Positions 238 to 11,785 of a stretch of DNA of 11,785 bases are shown piece after piece. Location: the IMG/VR virus record IMGVR_UViG_2695420482_000004; one strand, 5' to 3'. Under the pieces are notes generated by a model. The model was not told where the DNA came from, did not search any database, and saw nothing but the letters and a program-made list of their open reading frames with translations. The stretch is from a virus (taxonomy: Duplodnaviria > Heunggongvirae > Uroviricota > Caudoviricetes). Every line of letters starts with the position of its first letter. Position 1 is the stretch's first letter. A program made the translations under genes and the position numbers.

Positions 238-837
238 ATGAATGACCGTGAAACGCGCTGTTACAGCGGGGAGGTGCGGGCGGAACAATATGATAATGCC
301 CCGACCCACATTCTGGGGTATGGCTCGGTATTTAACAGTCGTTCAGAACCTCTGTGGGGATTTCGTGAAATCATCAAGCCGGGGGCTTTTGATGATGTAC
401 TGAATGATGATGTACGTGGCTTGTTTAATCATGATCCTAATTTCATTCTCGGACGAAGTTCTGCCGGCACGTTGTCATTGTCGGTGGATGAACGCGGTTT
501 ACGTTATGACATTGTTGCACCGGATACTCCGACTATTTGTGACCTGGTGCTGTCTCCAATGTTGCGTGGTGACATTAATCAGTCCTCGTTCGCGTTTCGT
601 GTCGCCCGTGACGGAGAGAGCTGGTATGAAGACGACGAGGGGATTGTTATCCGGGAAATCACGCGCATTTCTCGTCTGTATGACGTCAGCCCGGTGACAT
701 ATCCGGCCTATCAGGACGCAGACTCTGGTGTCCGCTCAATGAAAGCCTGGCAGGAAGCGCGGGCGAGTGGTGCGCTGAAGAAAGCTGTTAACGAACGAAT
801 GGCGCGTGAGCGTCTTTTGACCCTTCTTAATGCATAA
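238..837 (+). CDS. Prohead maturation protease, HK97 family (peptidase S78-like)
   Basis: 199-aa ORF with ATG start preceded by AGAGGA about 8 nt upstream. The frame is closed by TGA at 196-198, so 238 is the first possible start. Protein carries the conserved His-containing block (GLFNHDPNFILGRS) typical of HK97 gp4-type proteases, and sits immediately 5' of the major capsid gene. Family assignment is from motif recall, not a search. Confidence 0.85.
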   Translation: MNDRETRCYSGEVRAEQYDNAPTHILGYGSVFNSRSEPLWGFREIIKPGAFDDVLNDDVRGLFNHDPNFILGRSSAGTLSLSVDERGLRYDIVAPDTPTICDLVLSPMLRGDINQSSFAFRVARDGESWYEDDEGIVIREITRISRLYDVSPVTYPAYQDADSGVRSMKAWQEARASGALKKAVNERMARERLLTLLNA

Positions 838-851
838 GGATACTACTGACG

Positions 852-2069
852 ATGAAACTTCATGAGATGAAGCAAAAACGAAACACCATTGCAAAGGATA
901 TGCGTGCACTGCATGAAAAAATTGGTGATAACGCATGGACTGATGAGCAACGGGCAGAGTGGAACAGGGCGAAAGCTGAGCTGGATGCGCTGGATGAGCA
1001 AATCGCCCGTGAAGAAGAGTTGCGCCGTCAGGATCAGGCATATGTGGATGAGTCCGGGCCGGAAGAGCGCCAGAATAATGAGGCGGAGAACGGGAAAAAG
1101 GCGGTGGAAGAGAAGCGTGCTGCGGCATTTAACCGTTTTCTGCGTGCCGGATTTGCAGAACTGAATGCTGAAGAGCGTAATCTGATGCGTGAACTGCGGG
1201 CTCAGAGTGTAACAACGGATTCTCAGGGCGGATATACGGTGCCCACGCAGATGCGTAACAAAATCATTGACACCATGAAGGCTTATGGCGGGATTGCCAG
1301 TGTGGCGCAACTTCTGACCACATCAACCGGGCAGGATATCACCTGGTCAACGTCTGATGGCACGACTGAAGAGGGCGAACTGCTGGCGGAAAATACAGCC
1401 GCAACGGAACAGGATGTGACGTTCGGGACCGCTATTCTGGGGGCTAAAAAGCTGTCATCAAAAATAATTCGTGTGTCCAATGAGCTGCTCCAGGACAGTG
1501 GGGTGGATATTGAATCTTATCTGGCAAACCGTATTGCCCAGCGTATTGGTCGTGGAGAGGCAAAATATCTGGTTCAGGGGACCGGAACGGGATCACCGTT
1601 ACAGCCAAAAGGGCTGGCAGCGTCGGTGACGGGAACCATCCAGACTGCAGCCTCTGCCGCTTTCACCTGGAAAGAAATGAATGCCCTGAAACATGCCATT
1701 GATCCGGCATATCGTGGTGGGCCGAAATACCGCTGGGCATTCAATGATGCCACATTGCAGACTATTGAAGAGATGGAGGATGGACAGAAACGCCCGTTAT
1801 GGCTGCCGGATATTGCAGGCGGTACGCCGGCTACTGTGCTGGGGATCCCTTATGTTATTGATCAGGCTATTGACGGGATTGGTACCGGAAAAAAATTCAT
1901 TTTCCTGGGGGATTTCAACCGCTTTATCATTCGCCGCGTTACTTATATGGAACTGAAACGTCTGGTTGAGCGTTATGCTGAGTTTGATCAGGTGGCATTT
2001 CTGGCTTTCCATCGTTTTGACTGTGTGCTGGAAGATGTGGCAGCCATCAAGGCGCTCACTGGCAAATAA
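852..2069 (+). CDS. Major capsid protein, HK97 fold, with N-terminal delta (scaffolding) domain
   Basis: 405-aa ORF. Residues 1-120 are charged, K/E/R-rich and coiled-coil-like (delta domain), followed by the GGYTVP motif typical of the mature HK97-fold start. Position directly after the protease matches HK97-type head modules. The nearest upstream AGGA is about 11 nt from the ATG. Confidence 0.9.
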   Translation: MKLHEMKQKRNTIAKDMRALHEKIGDNAWTDEQRAEWNRAKAELDALDEQIAREEELRRQDQAYVDESGPEERQNNEAENGKKAVEEKRAAAFNRFLRAGFAELNAEERNLMRELRAQSVTTDSQGGYTVPTQMRNKIIDTMKAYGGIASVAQLLTTSTGQDITWSTSDGTTEEGELLAENTAATEQDVTFGTAILGAKKLSSKIIRVSNELLQDSGVDIESYLANRIAQRIGRGEAKYLVQGTGTGSPLQPKGLAASVTGTIQTAASAAFTWKEMNALKHAIDPAYRGGPKYRWAFNDATLQTIEEMEDGQKRPLWLPDIAGGTPATVLGIPYVIDQAIDGIGTGKKFIFLGDFNRFIIRRVTYMELKRLVERYAEFDQVAFLAFHRFDCVLEDVAAIKALTGK

Positions 2070-2090
2070 CCACTCGTTGTTCAGTTACAG

Positions 2091-2112
2091 ACCGCGCCGA
2101 CGCGGTTTTTTT
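2091..2112 (+). terminator. Intrinsic terminator-like hairpin plus T7 tract after the major capsid gene
   Basis: ACCGCG (2091-2096), loop CCGA, CGCGGT (2101-2106), then seven T (2106-2112), 22 nt after the capsid stop. A second 6-bp GC hairpin (GCCCGC 2115-2120 / GCGGGC 2129-2134) lies directly before the connector RBS. Confidence 0.55.
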
Positions 2113-2145
2113 ATGCCCGCACAGTGTTGCGGGCAGGAGTTTCTG

Positions 2146-2463
2146 ATGGCAGCAATAGTGGAAAAACTCAGGGCGCAGTGCCGTATTGATACAGATGATG
2201 CAACTGATGATGAGTTACTGATGCTGTATTTCCGGGCTGCCTGCCGCAAGGCAGAAAATTTTATCAACCGTAAGCTTTATGAGGAGACGGTGCCGGAAGG
2301 TGATCCTGAAGGGGTGCTTATAGCTGATGATGTTTTGCTGGCGCTCATGTTGCTGGTCGGGCACTGGTACGAAAACCGGGAAAATTCCTCAGATGTCAGC
2401 AAGGCACCAGTCCCGTTTGGTTTTTCTTCTCTGCTGGAGCCTTATCGTTTTATTCCTTTGTAG
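2146..2463 (+). CDS. Head-tail connector protein (HK97 gp6-like)
   Basis: Start chosen at ATG 2146 with AGGAG at 2135-2139 (6-nt spacer). The longer ORF from 1966 overlaps the capsid gene and the terminator, and the in-frame ATG at 2113 sits in the T-tract with no RBS. 105-aa acidic protein with the LLxLYxxAA / WYENRE pattern typical of gp6-like connectors. Confidence 0.7.
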   Translation: MAAIVEKLRAQCRIDTDDATDDELLMLYFRAACRKAENFINRKLYEETVPEGDPEGVLIADDVLLALMLLVGHWYENRENSSDVSKAPVPFGFSSLLEPYRFIPL

Positions 2464-2471
2464 GAGGAGGC

Positions 2472-2810
2472 ATGCAGGCGGGCAGATTACGTGATCGCGT
2501 AATTATTCTGAATGTCACCACCGCCCGCTCTCCGTCAGGGCATCCGGTGGAGACGGTGACGGAGGGAGCTACCGTATGGGCAGAAGTTAAGGGTATCAGC
2601 GGGAGGGAGATAATCTCAGGCGGAGCAGAAACCGCTCAGGCTACGGTCAGAGTCTGGATGAGATTCCGGCGAGATGTAACAGCAACTTCATGTCTAAAAG
2701 TGCTGACCGGTGCATTTAAAGGGGCCATTCTGGGTATAGAAGGTCCACCAATACCGGATGCACGCGCTACCCGGCTTGAAATACTCTGCAGCCTGAAGGG
2801 GAATGTGTGA
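2472..2810 (+). CDS. Head closure / head-tail joining protein
   Basis: 112-aa ORF with a strong RBS (AGGAGGAGG at 2462-2470) before ATG 2472. Size, position (second gene after capsid) and pattern (RxRVxI...VWAEV...GRE...VRVWMRFRRDV) fit the head-tail joining family. Confidence 0.7.
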   Translation: MQAGRLRDRVIILNVTTARSPSGHPVETVTEGATVWAEVKGISGREIISGGAETAQATVRVWMRFRRDVTATSCLKVLTGAFKGAILGIEGPPIPDARATRLEILCSLKGNV

Positions 2811-3256
2811 TGGATTTCAGTCTTGATTTTTCTGGCCTGGCGGATATTGCACGGGATTTGGAGACGCTCAGCAGGGCAGAAAACAATAAGGTTCTGCGCG
2901 ATGCCACCCGTGCCGGTGCTGAAGTTATGCGGGATGCAGTTGTTGAACGTGCGCCAGAGCGAACCGGGAAACTGAAGAAAAATGTGGTTGTTCTCACTCA
3001 GCGTTCAAAGCGTCGGGGGGAAATTATCTCGGGTGTCCACATTCGCGGACGGAACCTGCGAACCGGAAACAGTGATAACAGCATGAAAGCCAGCGATCCC
3101 CGAAATGCATTTTACTGGCGCTTTGTGGAGCTGGGAACGATAAACATGCCCGCGCATCCATTCATTCGCCCGGCTTTCGATACGACAGAGGAGCTGGCGG
3201 CGCAGGTTGCCATACAGCGAATGAATCAGGCTATTGATGAGGTCTTAAGTAAATGA
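2810..3256 (+). CDS. HK97 gp10-like tail component protein
   Basis: ORF opens at GTG 2807 and ATG 2810. The ATG overlaps the upstream stop (TGATG), suggesting translational coupling. About 148 aa with the ERAPERTGKLKK motif characteristic of the HK97 gp10 family. Start could be 2807 or 2810. Confidence 0.65.
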   Translation: MDFSLDFSGLADIARDLETLSRAENNKVLRDATRAGAEVMRDAVVERAPERTGKLKKNVVVLTQRSKRRGEIISGVHIRGRNLRTGNSDNSMKASDPRNAFYWRFVELGTINMPAHPFIRPAFDTTEELAAQVAIQRMNQAIDEVLSK

Positions 3257-3597
3257 GGGAGGCCACACTGTATTCCCTGTTGTCTCAGCTGGCCGGAGGA
3301 CAGGTTTATCCTTATGTGGTCCCGCTGACGGAGGGAAAGCCTGCGGTATCTCCGCCGTGGCTGGTGTTTTCTGTGGTGTCTGACACGGTATCTGATGTGC
3401 TTGATGGGCAGGCTGAATCCAGAATTACCGTGCAGATCGATGTCTGGGCGACAGTACCTGATGACGCAGATAATATTCGTGAGCAGGCGCTTGATGCGGT
3501 AAGAAAACTGGCACCCTCCGTTATTTCTAAAACGCAGGGTTATGATCCTGACTCCCGTCTGAGCAGAGCCACGCTTGAATTCCAGGTAATAGCCTGA
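3253..3597 (+). CDS. Tail completion / tail terminator-like protein (DUF3168-like)
   Basis: 114-aa ORF whose ATG overlaps the upstream stop (ATGA at 3253-3256). Last small gene before the major tail protein, which is the usual place for the tail terminator/completion protein. Family call is by position and composition only. Confidence 0.55.
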   Translation: MREATLYSLLSQLAGGQVYPYVVPLTEGKPAVSPPWLVFSVVSDTVSDVLDGQAESRITVQIDVWATVPDDADNIREQALDAVRKLAPSVISKTQGYDPDSRLSRATLEFQVIA

Positions 3598-3617
3598 GGT
3601 CATTAATGATTTTACCC

Positions 3618-3645
3618 ACCCGCCGCTGGCGGGTTTTTTTATTTT
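3618..3645 (+). terminator. Intrinsic terminator-like hairpin plus T-tract upstream of the major tail protein gene
   Basis: ACCCGCC (3618-3624), loop GCT, GGCGGGT (3628-3634), then T7 (3634-3640) and ATTTT. It is followed by AGGAG (3647-3651) and ATG 3658. Confidence 0.5.
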
Positions 3646-3657
3646 CAGGAGACGAGT

Positions 3658-4362
3658 ATGTCCTCTAATTTTGAGCGTTCGCAACTGACGAAAATTATGA
3701 TTTCGTCTGCACCGGTAACAGCAGAAACCCTGGATTCTGCCAGCTATCTTGGCCTGAGCTGTACAATCAAAGAGGTGCAGTTTACCGCAGGACAAAAGCA
3801 GGATATTGATGTCACCACGCTGTGTTCTGTTGAGCAGGAAAATATTAACGGTCTTGGGGCTGCTTCAGAGATTTCCATGTCAGGCAACTTTTATCTGAAT
3901 GCTGCCCAGAACGCGTTGCGCAGTGCCTATGACAATGACACCACGTATGGCTTTAAAGTTATTTTTCCGTCAGGCAACGGATTTACCTTTATGGCAGAGG
4001 TGCGTCAGCATACCTGGTCTGCAGGAACCAATGGTGTTGTGGCTGCAACGTTTTCTCTGCGCCTGAAAGGTAAGCCTGTGCTGACGACAGAGCCGCTGAA
4101 AGTGAAGGTCGATTTAAAAAGCACGCTGCGGGTTGCTTCCGGAGCGAAACTTGAAATGGCGGTTGAGGCTGTGGGTGGTGTGCCGCCTTATTCTTATGCC
4201 TGGAAAAAAGGTGGTTCTCCTGTTTCCGGACAGACGGCGGCAACGTTCAGTAAGGCATCAGCAGCATCCGGTGATGCCGGTGCGTATACCTGCGAGATTT
4301 CTGATTCAGCGAGCCCGGTTAACAAAGTGACCTCCACTTCCTGCACTGTAACCGTCAGTTAA
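3658..4362 (+). CDS. Major tail (tube) protein with C-terminal Ig-like domain
   Basis: 234-aa ORF with AGGAG 6 nt upstream of the ATG. It is the gene immediately 5' of the G/GT chaperone pair, the canonical position of the major tail protein. The C-terminal ~85 residues (GGVPPYSYAWKKGG...AGAYTCEISD...TVTVS) look like an Ig-like (I-set-type) domain, as seen on many siphovirus tail tube proteins. Confidence 0.85.
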   Translation: MSSNFERSQLTKIMISSAPVTAETLDSASYLGLSCTIKEVQFTAGQKQDIDVTTLCSVEQENINGLGAASEISMSGNFYLNAAQNALRSAYDNDTTYGFKVIFPSGNGFTFMAEVRQHTWSAGTNGVVAATFSLRLKGKPVLTTEPLKVKVDLKSTLRVASGAKLEMAVEAVGGVPPYSYAWKKGGSPVSGQTAATFSKASAASGDAGAYTCEISDSASPVNKVTSTSCTVTVS

Positions 4363-4376
4363 TGAGGATGGATGTG

Positions 4377-4748
4377 ATGACTAAAAATATCCGTAATCTG
4401 GCACTGGCAACGATGTCGGGGTTTCGCCATAAAACCGTTGATGTGCCTGAATGGGAGGGAGCAACGGTTGTGTTACGGGAACCTTCTGCAGAAGCCTGGT
4501 TGCGCTGGCAGGAGATCGTTAAAGCAAAAGATGATGAGACACCGTTATCCGTTGCGGAGCGCGCCCGCCGAAATCTGGAGGCAGATGTTGAACTGTTCAT
4601 TGATGTTCTGTGTGATACCGGACTGCAACCCGTATTTTCAGAGGATGATCGTGAACAGGTGATTGCCGTGTATGGCCCGGTGCATGCGCGGCTTCTTCGG
4701 CAGTCTCTGGAACTGATCAGTGATGCCGGCGAGGTTAAAAAAAAGTAG
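4377..4748 (+). CDS. Tail assembly chaperone (lambda gpG analogue)
   Basis: ORF is open from ATG 4362, which overlaps the major tail protein stop (TAATG). I prefer ATG 4377 (or GTG 4374) because GAGGA at 4364-4368 gives an 8-nt spacer. It ends with KKK-stop on an A8G run that forms the slippery site, and sits between the major tail and tape measure genes. Confidence 0.75.
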   Translation: MTKNIRNLALATMSGFRHKTVDVPEWEGATVVLREPSAEAWLRWQEIVKAKDDETPLSVAERARRNLEADVELFIDVLCDTGLQPVFSEDDREQVIAVYGPVHARLLRQSLELISDAGEVKKK

Positions 4749-5050
4749 CGCTTCCGGGGATGCGTTTTCTGATGATGCTGGCGCTCAGGATGGGGCGCAC
4801 ATTGTCAGAGTTACGCCGGGAAATGTCCGCATCAGAAATCATGATGTGGGCAGAATTTGACAGGTTCAGCCCGCTGGGGGACGAACGGGCTGATTTCCGG
4901 GCTGCCCAGATTGTTTCAGCTGTTTACGGTGCGCAGGGGGTCAAAGTGTCACTGAATGATGCGCTTCTTCAGTGGGAGAAGGAGCAGACAGAAGGCGCTT
5001 CAGATCCATTTGCCGGACTGGAAAACGCGCTTTTAATAGTGTCTCAGTGA
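4377..5050 (+). CDS. Tail assembly chaperone G-T fusion (product of -1 frameshift at 4739-4745)
   Basis: Joining the G frame through the AAG codon (4743-4745) to the -1 frame from 4745 gives a fusion of about 224 aa, ending at TGA 5048-5050. The conserved G/GT arrangement upstream of the tape measure gene in siphoviruses supports this. Confidence 0.6.
4739..4745 (+). other. Programmed -1 ribosomal frameshift slippery heptamer A AAA AAG
   Basis: X XXY YYZ heptamer in the G zero frame, 1 nt before the G stop (TAG 4746-4748). The -1 frame is closed by TAA at 4736-4738 and opens exactly at the slip site, then runs to 5050. Confidence 0.65.
4745..5050 (+). CDS. T-frame segment of the GT fusion (lambda gpT-like extension); probably not independently initiated
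   Basis: The -1 frame is open from 4739. The ORF track reports it from ATG 4760 (96 aa), but there is no convincing RBS before 4760. It is best read as the frameshift extension of G. Confidence 0.5.
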   Translation, partial: VALPGMRFLMMLALRMGRTLSELRREMSASEIMMWAEFDRFSPLGDERADFRAAQIVSAVYGAQGVKVSLNDALLQWEKEQTEGASDPFAGLENALLIVSQ

Positions 5051-5058
5051 GTCAACAT

Positions 5059-5080
5059 AACCGCTTCGGCGGTTTTTTTT
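5059..5080 (+). terminator. Intrinsic terminator-like hairpin plus T8 tract between GT and the tape measure gene
   Basis: AACCGC (5059-5064), loop TTCG, GCGGTT (5069-5074), with a T8 run at 5073-5080, directly before the tape measure RBS. Confidence 0.5.
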
Positions 5081-5090
5081 CGTCCGGAGA

Positions 5091-8000
5091 ATGAGTGTGG
5101 CGACATTACGTGAACTGATTATTAAAATCTCGGCAAATTCCCGGTCATTCCAGTCAGAGATCTCCCGGGCTTCGCGTATGGGGCAGGATTACTACCGTAC
5201 CATGCAGAACGGAGGCCGGCAGTCCGCTGCTGCATCCCGTGAAATGCGGCGTGCACTGGCAGAAGTGACGGATCAGATAAATACAGCTAAATCTTCGGCA
5301 CTGAATATGGCGGGGGCATTTGCCGGGGCTTTTGCTACCGGTCATCTTATTTCTCTCGCCGATGAGTGGAATTCAGTAAATGCCCGTCTGAAGCAGGCCT
5401 CACAGTCCAGTGATGATTTTCAGGTATCACAACGTGAATTAATGGCGATCAGCCAGAGAACGGGGACGGCGTTTTCTGATAACGCCAGCCTTTTTGCCCG
5501 TTCTGCAGCTTCCATGCGGGAGTATGGTTACAGTTCTGAGGAGGTACTGAAAGTCACCGAGGCGATCTCCACGGGCCTGAAATTATCCGGTGCCAGTACA
5601 GCAGAAGCCAGTTCGGTGATCACGCAGTTCAGTCAGGCACTGGCGCAGGGAGTGCTGCGCGGTGAAGAGTTTAACTCGGTGAATGAGAGCGGTGATCGTG
5701 TTATTCGTGCGCTGGCTGCGGGAATGGGCGTTGCCCGTAAGGATCTGAAGGCCATGGCGGATAACGGAAAACTAACCGCCGATAAGGTTGTTCCTGCACT
5801 GATTAGTCAGCTTGGGGCGTTGCGTGATGAATATGCAGCAATGCCTGATACGGTTTCATCCTCTGCAACCAAAGTTGAAAACGCCTTTATGGCCTGGGTT
5901 GGTGGTGCGAACGAGGCAAGCGGAGTGACGAAGACGCTCTCCGGGGTGCTGAATGGTCTTGCAGGCAATATTGATACCGTGGCAACCGCTGCCGGTGCTC
6001 TGGTTGCCGTCGGGGTAGCCCGATATTTTGGCAATATGGCGTCTTCTGCTGGATCTGCAACTGCCGGATTAATTACTGCAGCCAGAAACGAAGTGGCTCT
6101 TGCTGAAGCGCAACTTCGGGGGACACAGATAGCAACCGCCAGGGCGCGTGCGGCGGTTTATCGTGCGCAACAGGCGGTTGTTGCTGCTCGCGGTACCGAA
6201 AGGCAGGCCGCAGCAGAAGCGAAGCTGACAGCTGCTCAGGCGTCACTTACCCGTAATATTGCGGCCAGAACAGCGGCACAGACAACGCTGAATACTGTCA
6301 CGTCAGTGGGGAGTCGTCTGTTAAGTGGTGCGCTGGGGTTGGTTGGTGGTGTGCCGGGACTCGTCATGCTGGGGGCGACGGCCTGGTACACGATGTATCA
6401 GAATCAGGAGCAGGCCAGAGAATCTGCACGCCAGTATGCCGCAACAATCGACGAAATTCGCCAGAAAACGTCGGCAATGTCGCTTCCTGAAGCGTCAGAT
6501 AATGAGGAAAAGACGCGGCAGGCACTTGATGAGCAAAACAGGTTAATTGACGAGCAGAAAAGTAAGATTAAATCCTTACAGGAAAAAATTGCTGGCTATC
6601 AGTATGTGCTGGCAAACCCGGGCTGGACAACCGATAACGGTTTTATGATTAACCACATGACGTCGGTAAAAACTGTCACAGAAGGGCTTGCAGAAGCAAC
6701 AAATCAACTGGCAGTTGAACAGTCCCGTCTCACACAAATGCAGGGCAAAGCGCAATCCATTCAGGATGTGCTTGCCGGGCTGGAGGAGCGACGGGTAGCG
6801 TTGATCCGTCAACAGGCCGCGGAACAAAACAAAGCGTATCAGTCCCTGTTGATCATGAATGGGCAGCATACCGAGTTTAATCGCCTTCTCGGGCTCGGTA
6901 ATGAATTACTTCAGCAGCGACAGGGGCTGGTGAATGTACCGTTACGGCTACCACAGGCAACCCTGGATGATAAACAGCAGACTGCACTGAATAACAGCGA
7001 GCGCGAACTGGCTCTGTCCCGCCTGAAGGGGGAAGCCCGTGAGCGTGCCCGCCTGGGTTATGCTGCGGATGATCTCGGCTTTGTGGGAGAGGCGTATCAG
7101 ACAGCCAGACAGAATTATATCAATAACTCACTGGATGCCTGGCGAAATAACCAGGCAAATAAACCCAAAGCGCATAAAAAGACCGAAGCGGAAAAAACAG
7201 AAGATATTTATAAACGGCTGATTAAACAGCAAAAAGAACAAATAGCACTGGCAGGGCAGAATACTGAACTGGCTAAGATGAAATATCAGGTCAGTCAGGG
7301 CGAATTATCAACCCTGTCAGAAGCGCAGAAAAAAACGCTTTTGCAGAATGCAGCACTCATCGACCAGAAAAAGATTCGTGAGCAGCTTGCTGCGTATGAA
7401 AGCAGCCTGGCGGACAGTAATGCCAGTGCCCGGGCATCTGACGACGCGCAGTTACTGGGATATGGTGAAGGCTCACGGATGCGTGAACGACTCCAGGAAA
7501 TGTGGAGTATCCGGCATGAGTTTGAGCAGAAAAATAACGAGCTTCTGAGACAGTATCAGGCCGGAGAAATTGAAGAAGCCCTGTGGAAACAGGAGAAAGA
7601 ACTGAATAAAAAATATCTGGAAGAGCGTCTCAGCGATCAGCAGGATTATTATGCAAAGGCCGATGCTTTACGTAATAACTGGAATGCAGGACTCCAGGAG
7701 GGGCTGACCAACTGGGCAGACAGTGCCACCGATTATGCTTCGCAGGCGGCAGATGCTGTCGTTTCCACTATGGACGGACTGGTATCAAATATTTCCGATG
7801 CACTGGCCGGAAATGTTGTGGACTGGAGAAACTGGGGGAGTTCAGTTCTCCGGGAAGTTTCAAAAATTCTGATGAATGCGGCCATTGTTAACGGACTGAA
7901 GTCACTCTCCGGTGCCGGAGGGTGGCTTGGTACGGTCGGCGGATGGATTTCGGGGGCGGTGGCAAACGCAAAAGGTGGTGTTTACACATCGGCAAATCTG

Positions 8001-8324
8001 AGTGCTTACAGTAACACTATTGTGGATACACCGACGTATTTTGCTTTTGCGAAAGGTGCCGGGCTGATGGGCGAGGCCGGGCCTGAAGCTATCATGCCAC
8101 TGACACGGGCAGCGGACGGCTCTCTTGGGGTCAGAGCCATTGGCAATGTGAATAGTGGCGGGGGGGTTGTTTATTCTCCCGTGTATCACATCAGCATTCA
8201 GAATCAAGGGAGCAATGGCGAGATAGATGCGCGCTCAGCCAGGGGATTGGTGGATCTGATCGACAGCAGGGTTGTGTCAATTATGCAGTCATCGCGTCGG
8301 GATGGAGGATTGTACAGTGCCTGA
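5091..8324 (+). CDS. H: Tail tape measure protein (lambda gpH family C-terminus)
   Basis: 1077-aa ORF immediately after G/GT. Long alpha-helical, Ala/Gln/Glu/Lys-rich coiled-coil composition with internal hydrophobic segments. The C-terminal region (NWRNWGSSVLREVSKILMNAAIVNGL ... RRDGGLYSA) resembles my recollection of the lambda gpH C-terminal domain. Start may be ATG 5091 (GGAG only 1 nt upstream) or GTG 5097 (7-nt spacer). Confidence 0.9.
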   Translation: MSVATLRELIIKISANSRSFQSEISRASRMGQDYYRTMQNGGRQSAAASREMRRALAEVTDQINTAKSSALNMAGAFAGAFATGHLISLADEWNSVNARLKQASQSSDDFQVSQRELMAISQRTGTAFSDNASLFARSAASMREYGYSSEEVLKVTEAISTGLKLSGASTAEASSVITQFSQALAQGVLRGEEFNSVNESGDRVIRALAAGMGVARKDLKAMADNGKLTADKVVPALISQLGALRDEYAAMPDTVSSSATKVENAFMAWVGGANEASGVTKTLSGVLNGLAGNIDTVATAAGALVAVGVARYFGNMASSAGSATAGLITAARNEVALAEAQLRGTQIATARARAAVYRAQQAVVAARGTERQAAAEAKLTAAQASLTRNIAARTAAQTTLNTVTSVGSRLLSGALGLVGGVPGLVMLGATAWYTMYQNQEQARESARQYAATIDEIRQKTSAMSLPEASDNEEKTRQALDEQNRLIDEQKSKIKSLQEKIAGYQYVLANPGWTTDNGFMINHMTSVKTVTEGLAEATNQLAVEQSRLTQMQGKAQSIQDVLAGLEERRVALIRQQAAEQNKAYQSLLIMNGQHTEFNRLLGLGNELLQQRQGLVNVPLRLPQATLDDKQQTALNNSERELALSRLKGEARERARLGYAADDLGFVGEAYQTARQNYINNSLDAWRNNQANKPKAHKKTEAEKTEDIYKRLIKQQKEQIALAGQNTELAKMKYQVSQGELSTLSEAQKKTLLQNAALIDQKKIREQLAAYESSLADSNASARASDDAQLLGYGEGSRMRERLQEMWSIRHEFEQKNNELLRQYQAGEIEEALWKQEKELNKKYLEERLSDQQDYYAKADALRNNWNAGLQEGLTNWADSATDYASQAADAVVSTMDGLVSNISDALAGNVVDWRNWGSSVLREVSKILMNAAIVNGLKSLSGAGGWLGTVGGWISGAVANAKGGVYTSANLSAYSNTIVDTPTYFAFAKGAGLMGEAGPEAIMPLTRAADGSLGVRAIGNVNSGGGVVYSPVYHISIQNQGSNGEIDARSARGLVDLIDSRVVSIMQSSRRDGGLYSA

Positions 8325-8658
8325 GCCTGAAGTTTTTAACTGGATCCCCCGTGAGGGGATGGAGACGACACGAAAGCCATCAGTTATTACGGTAAAGTTT
8401 GGTGACGGATATGAACAGCGACGGGCTGGTGGTCTGAATGCGGATCTGAAAACGTTTAAACCGGTATTTCGTGTCACAGATGAATATTCCCGTGCCGCGC
8501 TGGACAGTTTTTTATCCCGTCATGCCGGGATTCGTGCTTTTTTGTGGCGTCCGCCAAAACACAACAGGACTGTCCGGGTTGTCTGCAGGGAGTGGAGCAT
8601 TTCGGATAATGCCATGTATACCGATTTTAACTGTACCTTTGAAGAGGTCACTCACTGA
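8317..8658 (+). CDS. M: Minor tail protein M (tail tip)
   Basis: Frame is open from TTG 8272, but that would overlap the tape measure gene by about 50 nt. In-frame ATG 8302 and GTG 8317 are better candidates; GGAGG at 8304-8308 gives an 8-nt spacer to 8317. Contains the KFGDGYEQR...GLNADLKT block recalled from lambda gpM. Stop overlaps the L start (TGATG). Confidence 0.8.
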   Translation: MPEPEVFNWIPREGMETTRKPSVITVKFGDGYEQRRAGGLNADLKTFKPVFRVTDEYSRAALDSFLSRHAGIRAFLWRPPKHNRTVRVVCREWSISDNAMYTDFNCTFEEVTH

Positions 8659-9356
8659 TGCAGGATATACAGCAGGAAACACTCAATGAGTGCACTAAAA
8701 CGGAGCAATCCGCGCTGATCGTGCTCTGGGAAGTCGATCTGACAGAGGTCGGCGGAGAACGTTATTTTTTCTGTAATGAGCAGAACGAAAAAGGTGAGTC
8801 GGTCACCTGGCAGGGGCGACAGTATCAGGCGTACCCTATTCAGGGAAGCGGCTTTGAGATGAACGGCAAAGGAGCCAGTGCAAGACCAACGCTGAAAGTC
8901 TCTAACCTGCACGGCATGGTCACCGGGATGGCGGAAGACCTGCAGAGTCTGGTCGGCGGAACGGTGGTCAGGCGTAAGGTTTACGCCCGTTTTCTGGATG
9001 CGGTGAACTTCGTCAACGGAAACAGTGACGCCGATCCGGAGCAGGAGGTGATCAGCCGCTGGCGCATCGAGCAGTGCAGCGAACTGAGCGCGGTCAGTGC
9101 CTCCTTTGTGTTGTCCACACCGACGGAAACGGATGGTGCCGTTTTTCCGGGGCGCATCATGCTGGCCAACACCTGCACCTGGATCTACCGCGGCGATGAG
9201 TGCGGTTATGATGGCCCGGCTGTCGCGGATGAATATGACCAGCCAACGTCCGATATCACGAAGGATAAGTGCAGCAAATGCCTGAGTGGTTGCAAGTTCC
9301 GCAATAACGTCGGCAATTTTGGCGGCTACCTTTCCATTAACAAACTTTCGCAGTAA
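8658..9356 (+). CDS. L: Minor tail protein L (tail tip, Fe-S cluster-binding Cys motif)
   Basis: 232-aa ORF, the same length as lambda gpL, and near-identical to it along its length by recall. C-terminal cysteines at residues 173, 182, 205, 208 and 212. Confidence 0.9.
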   Translation: MQDIQQETLNECTKTEQSALIVLWEVDLTEVGGERYFFCNEQNEKGESVTWQGRQYQAYPIQGSGFEMNGKGASARPTLKVSNLHGMVTGMAEDLQSLVGGTVVRRKVYARFLDAVNFVNGNSDADPEQEVISRWRIEQCSELSAVSASFVLSTPTETDGAVFPGRIMLANTCTWIYRGDECGYDGPAVADEYDQPTSDITKDKCSKCLSGCKFRNNVGNFGGYLSINKLSQ

Positions 9357-9361
9357 ATCCC

Positions 9362-10105
9362 ATGACAGAGACAGAATCAGCGATTCTGGCGCACGCCCGG
9401 CGATGTGCGCCAGCGGAGTCGTGCGGCTTCGTGGTGAGAACGCCGGAAGGGGAAAGATATTTTCCCTGCGTGAATATCTCTGGTGAGCCGGAGGAGTATT
9501 TCCGGATGTCGCCGGAGGACTGGCTGAGTGCAGAAATGCAGGGAGAGATTGTGGCGCTGGTCCACAGCCACCCCGGTGGTCTGCCCTGGCTGAGTGAGGC
9601 CGACCGGCGGCTGCAGGTGCAGAGTGATTTGCCGTGGTGGCTGGTCTGCCGGGGGGCGATTCATAAATTCCGCTGTGTGCCGCATCTCACCGGGCGGCGC
9701 TTTGAGCACGGGGTGACGGACTGTTACACGCTGTTCCGGGACGCTTACCATCTGGCGGGAATTGAGATGCCGGATTTTCATCGCGGGGATGACTGGTGGC
9801 GTCACGGCCAGAATCTCTATCTGGATAATATGGAGGCAACGGGGTTGTATCAGGTGCCGTTGTCAGCGGCCCAGCCGGGCGATGTGCTGCTGTGCTGTTT
9901 TGGTTCATCGGTGCCGAATCATGCCGCCATTTACTGTGGCGACGGCGAGCTGCTGCACCATATTCCTGAACAACTGAGTAAACGAGAGAGGTACACCGAC
10001 AAATGGCAGCGACGCACACACTCCCTCTGGCGTCACCGGGCATGGCACGCATCTGCCTTTACGGGGATTTGCAACGATTTGGTCGCCGTATCGACCTTCG
10101 TGTGA
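9362..10105 (+). CDS. K: Tail assembly protein K (N-terminal MPN/JAB metallopeptidase-like plus C-terminal NlpC/P60 cysteine peptidase-like)
   Basis: 247-aa ORF. JAMM-type motif HSHPGG...SEAD at residues 68-81 with an upstream AESCG element at 18-22. A Cys (GVTDCYTLF) and His (PNHAAIY) pair in the C-terminal half is consistent with NlpC/P60. From the internal Met (ATG 9506, GAGGAG 9 nt upstream) the sequence matches the 199-aa lambda K by recall. The longer form from ATG 9362 includes the N-terminal MPN elements and is preferred. Confidence 0.85.
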   Translation: MTETESAILAHARRCAPAESCGFVVRTPEGERYFPCVNISGEPEEYFRMSPEDWLSAEMQGEIVALVHSHPGGLPWLSEADRRLQVQSDLPWWLVCRGAIHKFRCVPHLTGRRFEHGVTDCYTLFRDAYHLAGIEMPDFHRGDDWWRHGQNLYLDNMEATGLYQVPLSAAQPGDVLLCCFGSSVPNHAAIYCGDGELLHHIPEQLSKRERYTDKWQRRTHSLWRHRAWHASAFTGICNDLVAVSTFV

Positions 10106-10650
10106 AAACGGGGGCTGAAGCCATCCGGGCACTGGCCACACAGCTCCCGGTGTTTCGTCAGAAACTGAATGAGGGCTGGTATCAGGTGCGCATTGCCGGG
10201 CGTGATGCAGGCGAAAATGAATTATCTGCCCGTCTTAATGAGCCGCTGGCAAATGGTGCCGTGATCCACATCGTGCCGCGTCTGGCGGGAGCTAAAAGTG
10301 GCGGTGTGTTTCAGGTGGTGCTTGGGGCGGCGCTGATTGCGGTGGCATGGTGGAACCCTGTGGGCTGGCTGGGGGCCGCGGCTGTATCGGGCATGTATGC
10401 GGCAGGGGCCAGTATGATCCTGGGCGGAGTGGCGCAGATGCTGGCACCGAAAGCCAGGACGCCCACGGCAGCCAGTACAGATAACGGCAAACAGAACACC
10501 TATTTCTCCTCACTGGATAACATGGTTGCCCAGGGCAATGTTCTGCCTGTTCTGTACGGTGAAATGCGCGTGGGGTCACGTGTGGTTTCTCAGGAGATCA
10601 GCACGGCAGACGAAGGGGATGGTGGTCAGGTTGTGGTGATTGGTCGCTGA
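10003..10650 (+). CDS. I: Tail assembly protein I (N-terminal ubiquitin-like domain, hydrophobic C-terminal region)
   Basis: 215-aa ORF. The N-terminus MAATHTLPLASPGMARICLYGDLQRFGRRIDLRVKTGAEAIRALATQLP matches lambda gpI as I recall it. Overlaps the 3' end of K by 103 nt in a different frame, as in lambda. Gly-Gly at residues 100-101 followed by a hydrophobic stretch. Confidence 0.9.
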   Translation: MAATHTLPLASPGMARICLYGDLQRFGRRIDLRVKTGAEAIRALATQLPVFRQKLNEGWYQVRIAGRDAGENELSARLNEPLANGAVIHIVPRLAGAKSGGVFQVVLGAALIAVAWWNPVGWLGAAAVSGMYAAGASMILGGVAQMLAPKARTPTAASTDNGKQNTYFSSLDNMVAQGNVLPVLYGEMRVGSRVVSQEISTADEGDGGQVVVIGR

Positions 10651-10668
10651 TGCAAAATGTTTTATGTG

Positions 10669-10700
10669 AAACCGCCTCCGGGCGGTTTTATCGTTTATGG
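10669..10700 (+). terminator. GC hairpin with weak T-tract between I and J (terminator-like or RNA processing/stability element)
   Basis: AAACCGCC (10669-10676), loop TCCG, GGCGGTTT (10681-10688), followed by TTTTATCGTTT. The T-tract is interrupted, so it is weaker than the other three. Confidence 0.35.
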
Positions 10701-10710
10701 AGCGTGAGGA

Positions 10711-11785
10711 ATGGGTAAAGGCAGCAGTAAGGGGCATACCCCGCGCGAAGCGAAGGACAACCTGAAGTCCACGCAGCTGCTGAGTGTGATCGATGCCATC
10801 AGCGAAGGGCCGGTTGAAGGTCCGGTGGATGGATTAAAAAGCGTGCTGCTGAACAGTACGCCGGTGCTGGACAGTGAGGGGAATACCAATATATCCGGCG
10901 TCACGGTGGTGTTCCGGGCCGGTGAGCAGGAGCAGACACCGCCGGAGGGATTTGAATCCTCCGGCTCCGAGACGGTGCTCGGTACAGAAGTGAAATATGA
11001 CACGCCGATCACCCGCGCCATCACGTCGGCAAACATCGACCGACTGCGCTTTACCTTCGGTGTGCAGGCACTGGTGGAAACCACCTCAAAGGGGGACCGG
11101 AATCCGTCGGAAGTTCGCCTGCTGGTTCAGATACAGCGTAATGGTGGCTGGGTGACGGAAAAAGACATCACCATTAAGGGCAAAACCACCTCGCAGTATC
11201 TGGCCTCGGTGGTGGTGGATAACCTGCCGCCGCGCCCGTTTAATATCCGGATGCGCAGAATGACGCCGGACAGCACCACAGACCAGCTGCAGAACAAAAC
11301 GCTCTGGTCGTCATACACCGAAATCATCGATGTGAAACAGGGCTACCCGAACACGGCACTGGTCGGCGTAAAGGTGGATTCGGAGCAGTTCGGCAGCCAG
11401 CAGGTGAGCCGTAATTATCATCTTCGCGGGCGTATTCTGCAGGTGCCGTCGAACTATAACCCGCAGACGCGGCAATACAGCGGTATCTGGGACGGAACGT
11501 TAAAACCGGCATACAGCAACAACCCGGCCTGGTGTCTGTGGGATATGCTGACCCACCCGCGCTACGGCATGGGGAAACGTCTTGGTGCGGCGGATGTGGA
11601 TAAATGGGCGCTGTATGTCATCGGCCAGTACTGCGACCAGTCGGTGCCGGACGGCTTTGGCGGCACGGAGCCGCGCATTACCTGTAATGCGTACCTGACC
11701 ACACAGCGTAAGGCGTGGGATGTGCTCAGTGATTTCTGCTCGGCGATGCGCTGTATGCCGGTATGGAACGGGCAGACGCTGACGT
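10711..11785 (+). CDS. J: Host specificity / central tail fibre protein J (5' partial; continues beyond window end)
   Basis: ATG 10711 with GGAG 8 nt upstream; open to the window end (358 codons, no stop). N-terminus MGKGSSKGHTPREAKDNLKSTQLLSVIDAISEGP... matches lambda gpJ by recall. It is not in the ORF track because it lacks a stop in the window. Confidence 0.9.
   Translation, partial: MGKGSSKGHTPREAKDNLKSTQLLSVIDAISEGPVEGPVDGLKSVLLNSTPVLDSEGNTNISGVTVVFRAGEQEQTPPEGFESSGSETVLGTEVKYDTPITRAITSANIDRLRFTFGVQALVETTSKGDRNPSEVRLLVQIQRNGGWVTEKDITIKGKTTSQYLASVVVDNLPPRPFNIRMRRMTPDSTTDQLQNKTLWSSYTEIIDVKQGYPNTALVGVKVDSEQFGSQQVSRNYHLRGRILQVPSNYNPQTRQYSGIWDGTLKPAYSNNPAWCLWDMLTHPRYGMGKRLGAADVDKWALYVIGQYCDQSVPDGFGGTEPRITCNAYLTTQRKAWDVLSDFCSAMRCMPVWNGQTLT

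Follow-up and report, generated by a model that had tools for sequence, protein, structure and literature searches.

The stretch of DNA examined here (IMG/VR virus record IMGVR_UViG_2695420482_000004, 11.8 kb; hereafter the window) is the late structural region of a lambdoid prophage of Escherichia coli whose head is of the HK97 type and whose tail tip is of the lambda type. Its genes were mapped from the list of open reading frames (ORFs) and from the annotation of a near-identical phage, Escherichia phage vB_EcoS-640R1 (ON470612, 97.9% identity over 99% of the window). Gene junctions on the plus strand are at most 14 nt long or overlapping except at four places, namely between the genes for the major capsid protein (MCP) and the adaptor Ad1 (76 nt), between the tail completion gene Tc1 and the gene for the major tail protein (MTP; 60 nt), between T and the gene for the tape measure protein (TMP; 46 nt), and between I and J (60 nt). 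Each of these four gaps, the only ones on this strand longer than 15 nt, holds one hairpin followed by a T-run (sites 1–4, Table 1). Four such elements at the boundaries of gene modules had been proposed from the letters alone (hereafter the sequence-only reading), and direct reading of the coding strand bears out both their coordinates and their placement; in related prophages, the same module boundaries are also mosaic joints and insertion points of morons.

Table 1. Elements and genes of the window in order of position, followed by insertions found in relatives (positions in those loci). Genes follow the ORF list and the ON470612 annotation. SD, Shine–Dalgarno sequence.
Feature	Position	Strand	Details
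Protease	238-837	+	
MCP	852-2069	+	
Site 1, hairpin 1 + T7	2091-2112 (annotated span 2089..2112)	+	ACCGCG-CCGA-CGCGGT; core CCGCG/CGCGG at 2092-2096 and 2101-2105, loop CCGA, T-run 2106-2112; between MCP and Ad1
Site 1, hairpin 2	2114-2135	+	TGCCCGCA-CAGTGT-TGCGGGCA; 1 nt past the T-run, ends at the Ad1 SD
Ad1 (adaptor)	2146-2463	+	SD AGGAG 2135-2139, ATG 2146
Ad2	2472-2810	+	
Ne1	2807-3256	+	
Tc1 (tail completion)	3253-3597	+	stop 3595-3597
Site 2	3618-3645	+	ACCCGCC-GCT-GGCGGGT (3618-3634), T7 (3634-3640), then ATTTT; between Tc1 and MTP
MTP	3658-4362	+	SD 3647-3651, ATG 3658
G	4377-4748, G-T frameshift extension to 5050	+	G-T stop 5048-5050
Site 3	5059-5080	+	AACCGC-TTCG-GCGGTT + T8; between G-T frameshift product and TMP
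TMP	5097-8324	+	SD 5086-5089, GTG 5097
M, L, K, then I	I to 10650	+	I stop 10648-10650
Site 4	10669-10700	+	AAACCGCC-TCCG-GGCGGTTT (10669-10688), then TATCGTTTAT; between I and J
J	from 10711	+	ATG 10711
Moron insertions at site 3 in relatives	L006 14196-14646; L013 14188-14649; L070 14218-14675; L072 14216-14502; L088 14166-14754; L113 14095-14529		

On the sense strand, the elements have all the structural features of a Rho-independent terminator. A GC-rich stem–loop is present on the transcribed strand at all four sites, with stems of 6–8 bp including 4–6 GC pairs and with loops of 3–4 nt, and an unbroken U-tract follows the stem at sites 1–3 (T7, T7 and T8) and only in part at site 4, where the T-run is interrupted (TTTTATCGTTTAT). 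The hairpins start 20, 21, 9 and 19 nt downstream of a stop codon (sites 1, 2, 3 and 4, respectively), that upstream of site 3 belonging to the rare G-T frameshift product, and end 10–35 nt before the next start codon, so that they lie outside translated sequence and outside the footprint of a terminating ribosome. The loops include stable tetraloop types (UUCG and UCCG in the window, GNRA in relatives).

Predicted folding energies are −11.2 kcal/mol at site 1, −12.6 kcal/mol at site 2, about −8 kcal/mol for the site 3 hairpin and −22.8 kcal/mol at site 4 (z −4.0), where the helix extends and takes in part of the T-run. Compared singly with composition-preserving shuffles, sites 1–3 have modest z-scores (−0.9 to −2.0), and a lax terminator scan of the window gave no overall enrichment (16 matches vs 11.2 ± 3.7 expected), with sites 1–3 among its top matches and site 4 missed because its stem extends. 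A strict scan, requiring at least five perfect pairs, at least four GC pairs and at least six T in the 8 nt past the last GC pair, returned exactly sites 1–3 where 0.16 matches were expected, and none of 300 first-order Markov simulations reached three. Relaxed to at least five T, the scan added site 4 and yielded five matches (0.72 expected); the four on the plus strand are all intergenic, and the single one on the minus strand is weak and lies at site 3, on which ground the possibility of bidirectional terminators was dismissed. The joint pattern of the elements is far beyond chance.

Upstream on the same strand, ON470612 has a gene annotated as antitermination protein Q, followed by those for a tRNA, holin, lysozyme, Rz and terminase, and a Q-antiterminated late operon would be a reasonable context for the window. 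We lean towards reading the four elements as independent functional Rho-independent terminator modules that act conditionally within such an operon.

Two features of the sequence around the elements may be recorded here. In the RNAfold structure of 10657-10707, the outer helix of site 4 is formed by the U-rich AUGUUUUAU (10657-10665) and by AUGGAGCGU (10697-10705), a segment with GGAG that lies just 5′ of the ribosome-binding site for J. The leaders downstream of sites 2–4 (3647-3660, 5085-5099 and 10702-10713) have in common the pattern GGAG-N3-GAG(T/G) before the start codon (CAGGAGACGAGTATG, CCGGAGAATGAGTGTG and ATGGAGCGTGAGGAATG), which may be a double Shine–Dalgarno-like motif or may reflect shared ancestry of the leaders.

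Conservation of the elements in related prophages

For comparison we collected 80 IMG/VR loci via the MCP and 32 loci from species-representative genomes, the latter with 61–79% MCP identity and drawn from Symbiopectobacterium, Mangrovibacter, Citrobacter, Kosakonia, Atlantibacter, Kluyvera, Buttiauxella, Rosenbergiella, Serratia, Proteus, Xenorhabdus, Morganella, Providencia, Rouxiella and Marinobacter. The elements persist at the same junctions in prophages of many Enterobacterales genera, often with different stems and with the T-runs kept. At site 1, the CCGC/GCGG core of hairpin 1 and a T-run of six to eight are invariant in 30 diverse sequences, while the loops vary (GAAA, GTAA, GTGA, GAGA, TTCG, TTAG, TTAATT and others) and the 5′ flank cannot be aligned. 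Each of the five distinct distant sequences keeps site 2, with CCCGC stems in Symbiopectobacterium and Serratia or a CCACC stem in Proteus, and three of four keep site 3. Among 21 equal-length variants of site 4, none of the 16 positions of the stem arms varies, compared with all four loop positions and 11 of the 40 flanking positions; a close relative (L014) has a T8 here. Next to distant I and J homologues (31–39% amino acid identity), a different hairpin with T7–8 occupies the same place in five of seven cases, the element not being found in the other two (Proteus L099 and Morganella L103). Across sites 2–4, hairpin and T-run are thus kept with changed stems where the flanking proteins are 31–70% identical.

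These comparisons indicate that the elements are selected structures whose fold is under ongoing purifying selection, because stems are fixed while loops and flanks vary, because the structure is kept with other stem sequences, and because the T-run is conserved. Since a hairpin that only stabilised RNA would need no T-run, this last point favours termination. The sequence-only reading had staked itself on conservation of the stems in homologous phages, and the hairpins are indeed kept in distant relatives, with different stems.

It had further described the four elements as sharing one sequence design, and had taken this to suggest a common origin or a common function. The likeness exists and is weak: in an alignment of the four gaps, only CCGC, GG and the T-run are invariant, while loops, stem lengths and flanks differ, and the shared ACCGC/GCGGT core measures 4–5 bp. 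This core is generic. When 200 kb of E. coli K-12 were scanned by identical criteria, the most frequent 4-mer in the 5′ arms of terminator-like hairpins was CCGC, mostly within CCCGC (7 of 22 under strict and 8 of 48 under lax rules). Orthologous sites also carry other stems, as in HK97 (GGGGGCGGG after the capsid gene, CCCGCT before TMP, CCACC at K/I and GCCACC before J), in lambda (GCCGC at D/E and GGCCC at E/FI), in IMG/VR relatives at T/TMP (CCTCGCG and CCTCGC) and in Proteus at Tc/MTP (CCACC). Because the core is generic in K-12 and relatives use other stems, a common function of the four elements is supported and a common origin is not; what persists is the design and not the sequence. 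A mobile repeat resembling repetitive extragenic palindromes (REPs) or miniature inverted-repeat transposable elements (MITEs) was considered and rejected for the same reasons. Were the four sites independent draws from the K-12 sample, finding CCGC in all four would have a nominal p of about 0.001–0.01, to which we give little weight, the motif being a post hoc choice and the sample comprising only 22–48 hairpins; phage terminators may nevertheless prefer a CCGC core.

A tandem hairpin behind the capsid gene

Site 1 contains a second hairpin, overlooked in the sequence-only reading, which begins directly after the T-run of hairpin 1 and reaches the SD of Ad1. Together the two hairpins fold with −30.8 kcal/mol (z −5.15, none of 200 shuffles as good), and the tandem follows this MCP family in all relatives examined save Marinobacter. 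Hairpin 2 occurs in the relatives with 19 distinct stems of 6–12 bp and with loops that are not conserved. As MAFFT misaligned its 3′ arm, covariation was assessed in a stem-anchored pseudo-alignment, in which 96.7% of the cells are paired compared with 89.9% after shuffling (none of 500 shuffles reached this value), a structure-based measure and so biased towards structure. Four of the eight pairs are changed on both sides (23 cells; 0 of 500 shuffles), with the series C-G/U-G/U-A at two depths of the stem and A-U/G-C/C-G at a third, controls slid along the sequence pair to 24–44%, and the variety of stems is also visible in the raw sequences.

The covarying hairpin 2 after the capsid gene is the sole new element of this analysis and a candidate for a new RNA motif. 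Rfam 15 gave no match at the gathering threshold, the best being isrK (21 bits, threshold 50) and Esr41 (16.4 bits, threshold 102). Known RNA families were accordingly rejected as an explanation, since the matches to isrK, Esr41 and potC are all below threshold and involve the terminator-like part only; the regions of weak similarity to the prophage and enterohaemorrhagic E. coli (EHEC) small RNAs (sRNAs) isrK and Esr41 (3577-3639 and 2091-2144) were judged not meaningful.

The tandem is where an explanation by RNA processing and stability has most to offer. In this explanation, a putative cut in the single-stranded U-rich linker after read-through, for example by RNase E, would leave the upstream hairpin to protect the 3′ end of the capsid segment, or of another upstream segment, and give the segments of the transcript their own half-lives. 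Hairpin 2 of site 1 would shield the 5′ end newly formed on the Ad1 message or govern how accessible the Ad1 SD is. The conserved arrangement of hairpin, U7 and covarying hairpin at site 1 fits this explanation. The T-runs after capsid genes are also poor or absent elsewhere (TTTT in HK97, none after lambda E), so that the hairpin and not the T-run is the common denominator at this position. The mean predicted unpaired probability of the Ad1 SD rises from 0.22 in the full-length sequence to 0.45 on removal of hairpin 1 and the U-tract, a weak, model-based indication, and a passage in PMC10311766 describes an analogous case of operon stoichiometry controlled by stem–loops. Against this, the T6–8 at site 1 is strictly conserved and T-runs are kept at sites 2–4, although an exonuclease barrier needs none, and the varying loops of hairpin 2 make a sequence-specific binding partner unlikely. 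We consider this explanation unlikely for the four elements taken together. RNase III sites were also considered and rejected, as hairpins of 6–12 bp were, by judgement only, too short for a canonical substrate.

For the MCP/Ad1 tandem by itself, a more specific proposal is possible, if doubtful. The CCGC/GCGG hairpin, the U7 linker and the covarying 7–12 bp hairpin at the SD might form an undescribed and widely conserved cis-regulatory RNA of HK97-like Enterobacterales prophages, which would set the capsid-to-connector ratio post-transcriptionally, either through cleavage in the U-linker with hairpin-protected ends or through base-pairing of the SD with the U-tract. A sequence-specific partner or a fitness valley would in that case account for the invariant 4-bp core. 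Conditional termination, which we prefer for the four elements in general, and the rival explanations are not mutually exclusive.

The 18-mer pattern GCGG-T7-RTGCCYG is widespread in viral contigs, and 17 of 80 fetched matches follow this MCP family. In many unrelated phage contigs (L120–L199), a terminator hairpin is followed by T7, ATGCCTGGAG, about 6 nt and an ATG, before J-like, TMP-like and other late genes, and ATGCCYG recurs after the T-run. From these sequences, a terminator set flush against the SD of the next gene looks like a widespread phage design.

Module joints and morons at the element sites

In several relatives the elements mark the exact place where one module gives way to another. 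In prophages of the L036 type, the MCP is 100% identical and both hairpins are identical too, and directly after GCGGGCA the sequence continues with an Ad1 allele that is only 46% identical; in L036 (11233-11330) and two more loci of this type, the mosaic junction coincides exactly with the 3′ end of hairpin 2. In several loci, I alleles that are 74% identical stand beside an unchanged site 4 hairpin and a J that is 97–98% identical.

Site 3 is an insertion point. In six relatives (Table 1), 250–570 nt with a GC content of 31–38%, compared with 51–53% in the flanks, are inserted between the T stop codon and the hairpin, each insertion encoding a different small protein. The products include a transmembrane and zinc-ribbon protein (PF13248), a YebO-like protein (PF13974), two related lipoproteins with a DPDSAKF motif, and others. 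HK97 gp15, the founding moron, is also of the YebO family, and its gene stands between those for the tail chaperone and the tape measure. Morons are described as bringing a promoter and a terminator of their own, so that they are expressed from repressed prophages (PMC3594210); upstream of the L006 and L013 morons, a simple sigma-70 scan gave no convincing match. In L006, the site 3 hairpin and all downstream sequence are identical to the window despite the moron, so the same hairpin serves with or without one. The window itself holds no moron, understood as an extra gene that stands out by its GC content, has a promoter of its own and is followed by a terminator: its gaps are 46–76 nt long and contain neither an ORF nor a promoter-like site. 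Because the window has a hairpin at each of the four sites and no moron or recognisable promoter there, the elements exist independently of a moron.

Findings of this kind could also mean that the elements are leftovers, that is, terminators of lost morons or joints marking module exchange, without present function. That the mosaic joints fall exactly at the elements, as in L036 with its switch of Ad1 after hairpin 2, that divergent I alleles abut an unchanged hairpin and a nearly identical J, and that the presence or absence of a moron is the sole difference upstream of an identical site 3 hairpin would all be expected of such linkers. Leftovers would not be expected to keep invariant stems amid varying loops and flanks, to retain the structure with different stem sequences across genera or to conserve the T-run, and we regard this explanation as highly improbable.

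One chromosome of Symbiopectobacterium purcellii (NZ_CP189882.1) carries at least five copies of prophage regions with this MCP family (79% identity; L088, L089, L090, L111 and L117), some with rearranged or truncated tail modules. A 539-bp contig of an assembly of the actinomycete Actinoallomurus acaciae (NZ_JBHLZP010001294.1, L114) encodes a fragment 100% identical to the capsid protein of this prophage and is most likely a contamination.

Precedents and conditional termination

Terminators inside lambdoid late operons are already in print. The GenBank record of HK97 (NC_002167) lists putative terminators as regulatory features at four places matching those of the window, namely behind the major head gene (5192-5213), where the tail terminator gene gives way to the major tail gene (6692-6719), between the gp15 moron and the tape-measure gene (8398-8422), and directly before J (15107-15129); the evidence from HK97 is this annotation. 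As in the window, a sense-strand hairpin with a T-run stands at each of the four junctions, and the HK97 Tc/MTP element has nearly the same sequence as site 2 (AACCCGCC-AGAT-GGCGGGTT, then TTCTTTTTCCAGGAGAC). Unlike the window, HK97 has three further elements in its late operon (after the portal gene, after MTP and at K/I), morons precede its TMP and J elements, and its post-capsid hairpin has a stem of GGGGGCGGG/CCCGCCC followed by only four T and by no second hairpin. Moron terminators of the gp15 type resemble site 3 in hairpin design and in their location between tail chaperone and tape measure, whereas in the window the hairpin is present without a moron gene. Lambda has an I/J hairpin (15463-15482) orthologous to site 4 (GAAACCGCC-TGCG-GGCGGTTTT), which differs only in loop and tail and bears no feature annotation in the RefSeq record of lambda; lambda has no counterpart of either site 2 or site 3. 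An Hfq-dependent sRNA at this lambda site was considered and rejected: a lambda preprint using RNA interaction by ligation and sequencing (RIL-seq) places the sRNAs it reports solely within the early-left operon and close to pR′, and the EHEC study by Hfq cross-linking and analysis of cDNA (CRAC) concerns the moron site at pR′.

In phage L, a P22-like phage of a different group with non-homologous genes, a rho-independent terminator is likewise predicted at the end of the procapsid module of a late operon with a single promoter and antitermination (PMC8022706). The same genome paper, from 2020, calls intra-operon terminators common, adds that "their roles are not known" and offers partial termination or the stopping of non-antiterminated transcription as possibilities (PMC8022706). 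With the HK97 annotation and this paper, both the feature and the functional guesses are already known; the observation made from the sequence is correct and careful, concerns an ordinary feature that had been annotated in lambdoid late operons before and, as first described, is nothing fundamentally new. The small open question is why Q-antiterminated late operons keep intrinsic terminators between modules of structural genes. For this question the window is a clean test case, with its four elements in the sole four real gaps, no confounding morons, many natural variants and, in its relatives, morons that use the same hairpins; deciding between insulation, attenuation and mRNA processing would clarify how virion genes are kept silent alongside moron expression, and how the ratios of structural proteins are set.

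Attenuation was the function put forward first in the sequence-only reading: in lytic growth, some late transcripts would end at each hairpin, and the stepwise lower dosage of downstream mRNA would set the stoichiometry of the virion. Site 1 fits, standing after the gene for the most abundant protein and before the low-copy connector genes, and hairpins follow the capsid genes also in lambda (D/E and E/FI) and HK97; short stems are what leaky terminators would have, and partial termination is one of the possibilities named in PMC8022706. The proposal fails at site 2, which lies after low-copy genes and directly before the very abundant major tail gene, the wrong order for polarity. It fares no better in lambda, which needs the same virion ratios and has no hairpin at U/V or T/H, and sites 3 and 4 are missing in Proteus and Morganella relatives. 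Sampson et al., in PNAS in 1988, are said to have attributed the relative expression rates of lambda late genes to translation initiation, which would also weigh against it. Moreover, a Q-loaded polymerase is structurally kept from forming terminator hairpins (PMC9388147, PMC6606751). We therefore think it improbable that partial termination sets the stoichiometry.

As conditional terminators, the elements would instead act on polymerase that lacks Q. Spurious or read-in transcription in the lysogen and, in relatives, moron transcripts started just upstream would be released there, which would keep the virion genes silent and provide the moron transcripts with a 3′ end. During lytic growth, Q-loaded polymerase would pass the elements with little loss; Q forms a nozzle at the RNA exit channel of the polymerase that precludes formation of a terminator hairpin (PMC9388147, PMC6606751). 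In the finished mRNA the hairpins would still fold and could act as barriers to 3′ exonucleases. Termination itself, the way it depends on Q and any influence on RNA stability are inferred; in the literature we found no report of transcript 3′ ends or in vitro release at these sites. Insulation of this kind is supported by the low-GC morons that lie directly upstream of the site 3 hairpin in relatives. By way of analogy only, passages in PMC11658703 and PMC8191782 describe terminators of Tn916 and other Gram-positive conjugative elements that block premature expression and are overridden by dedicated antitermination, the elements and the antitermination mechanisms being unrelated to those of the window.

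Several observations weigh against conditional termination. The stems are short (−8 to −13 kcal/mol at sites 1–3) and the T-run of site 4 is broken. The window shows no excess of promoter-like sites that would need insulating (7 vs 8.1 expected) and carries no moron, and the Q gene and pR′ lie outside it. Some relatives, in Proteus and Morganella, do without elements at T/TMP and I/J. Finally, insulation leaves the strongly conserved hairpin 2 of site 1 unexplained.

A minor observation concerns the frameshift product whose stop codon precedes site 3. Gene G ends in a run of eight A with a G behind it (GGTTAAAAAAAAGTAG, 4733-4748), which is probably where the −1 slip of the G-T tail-chaperone frameshift takes place. 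This candidate is unlike the slippery site of lambda G-T, which we take to be GGGAAAG.

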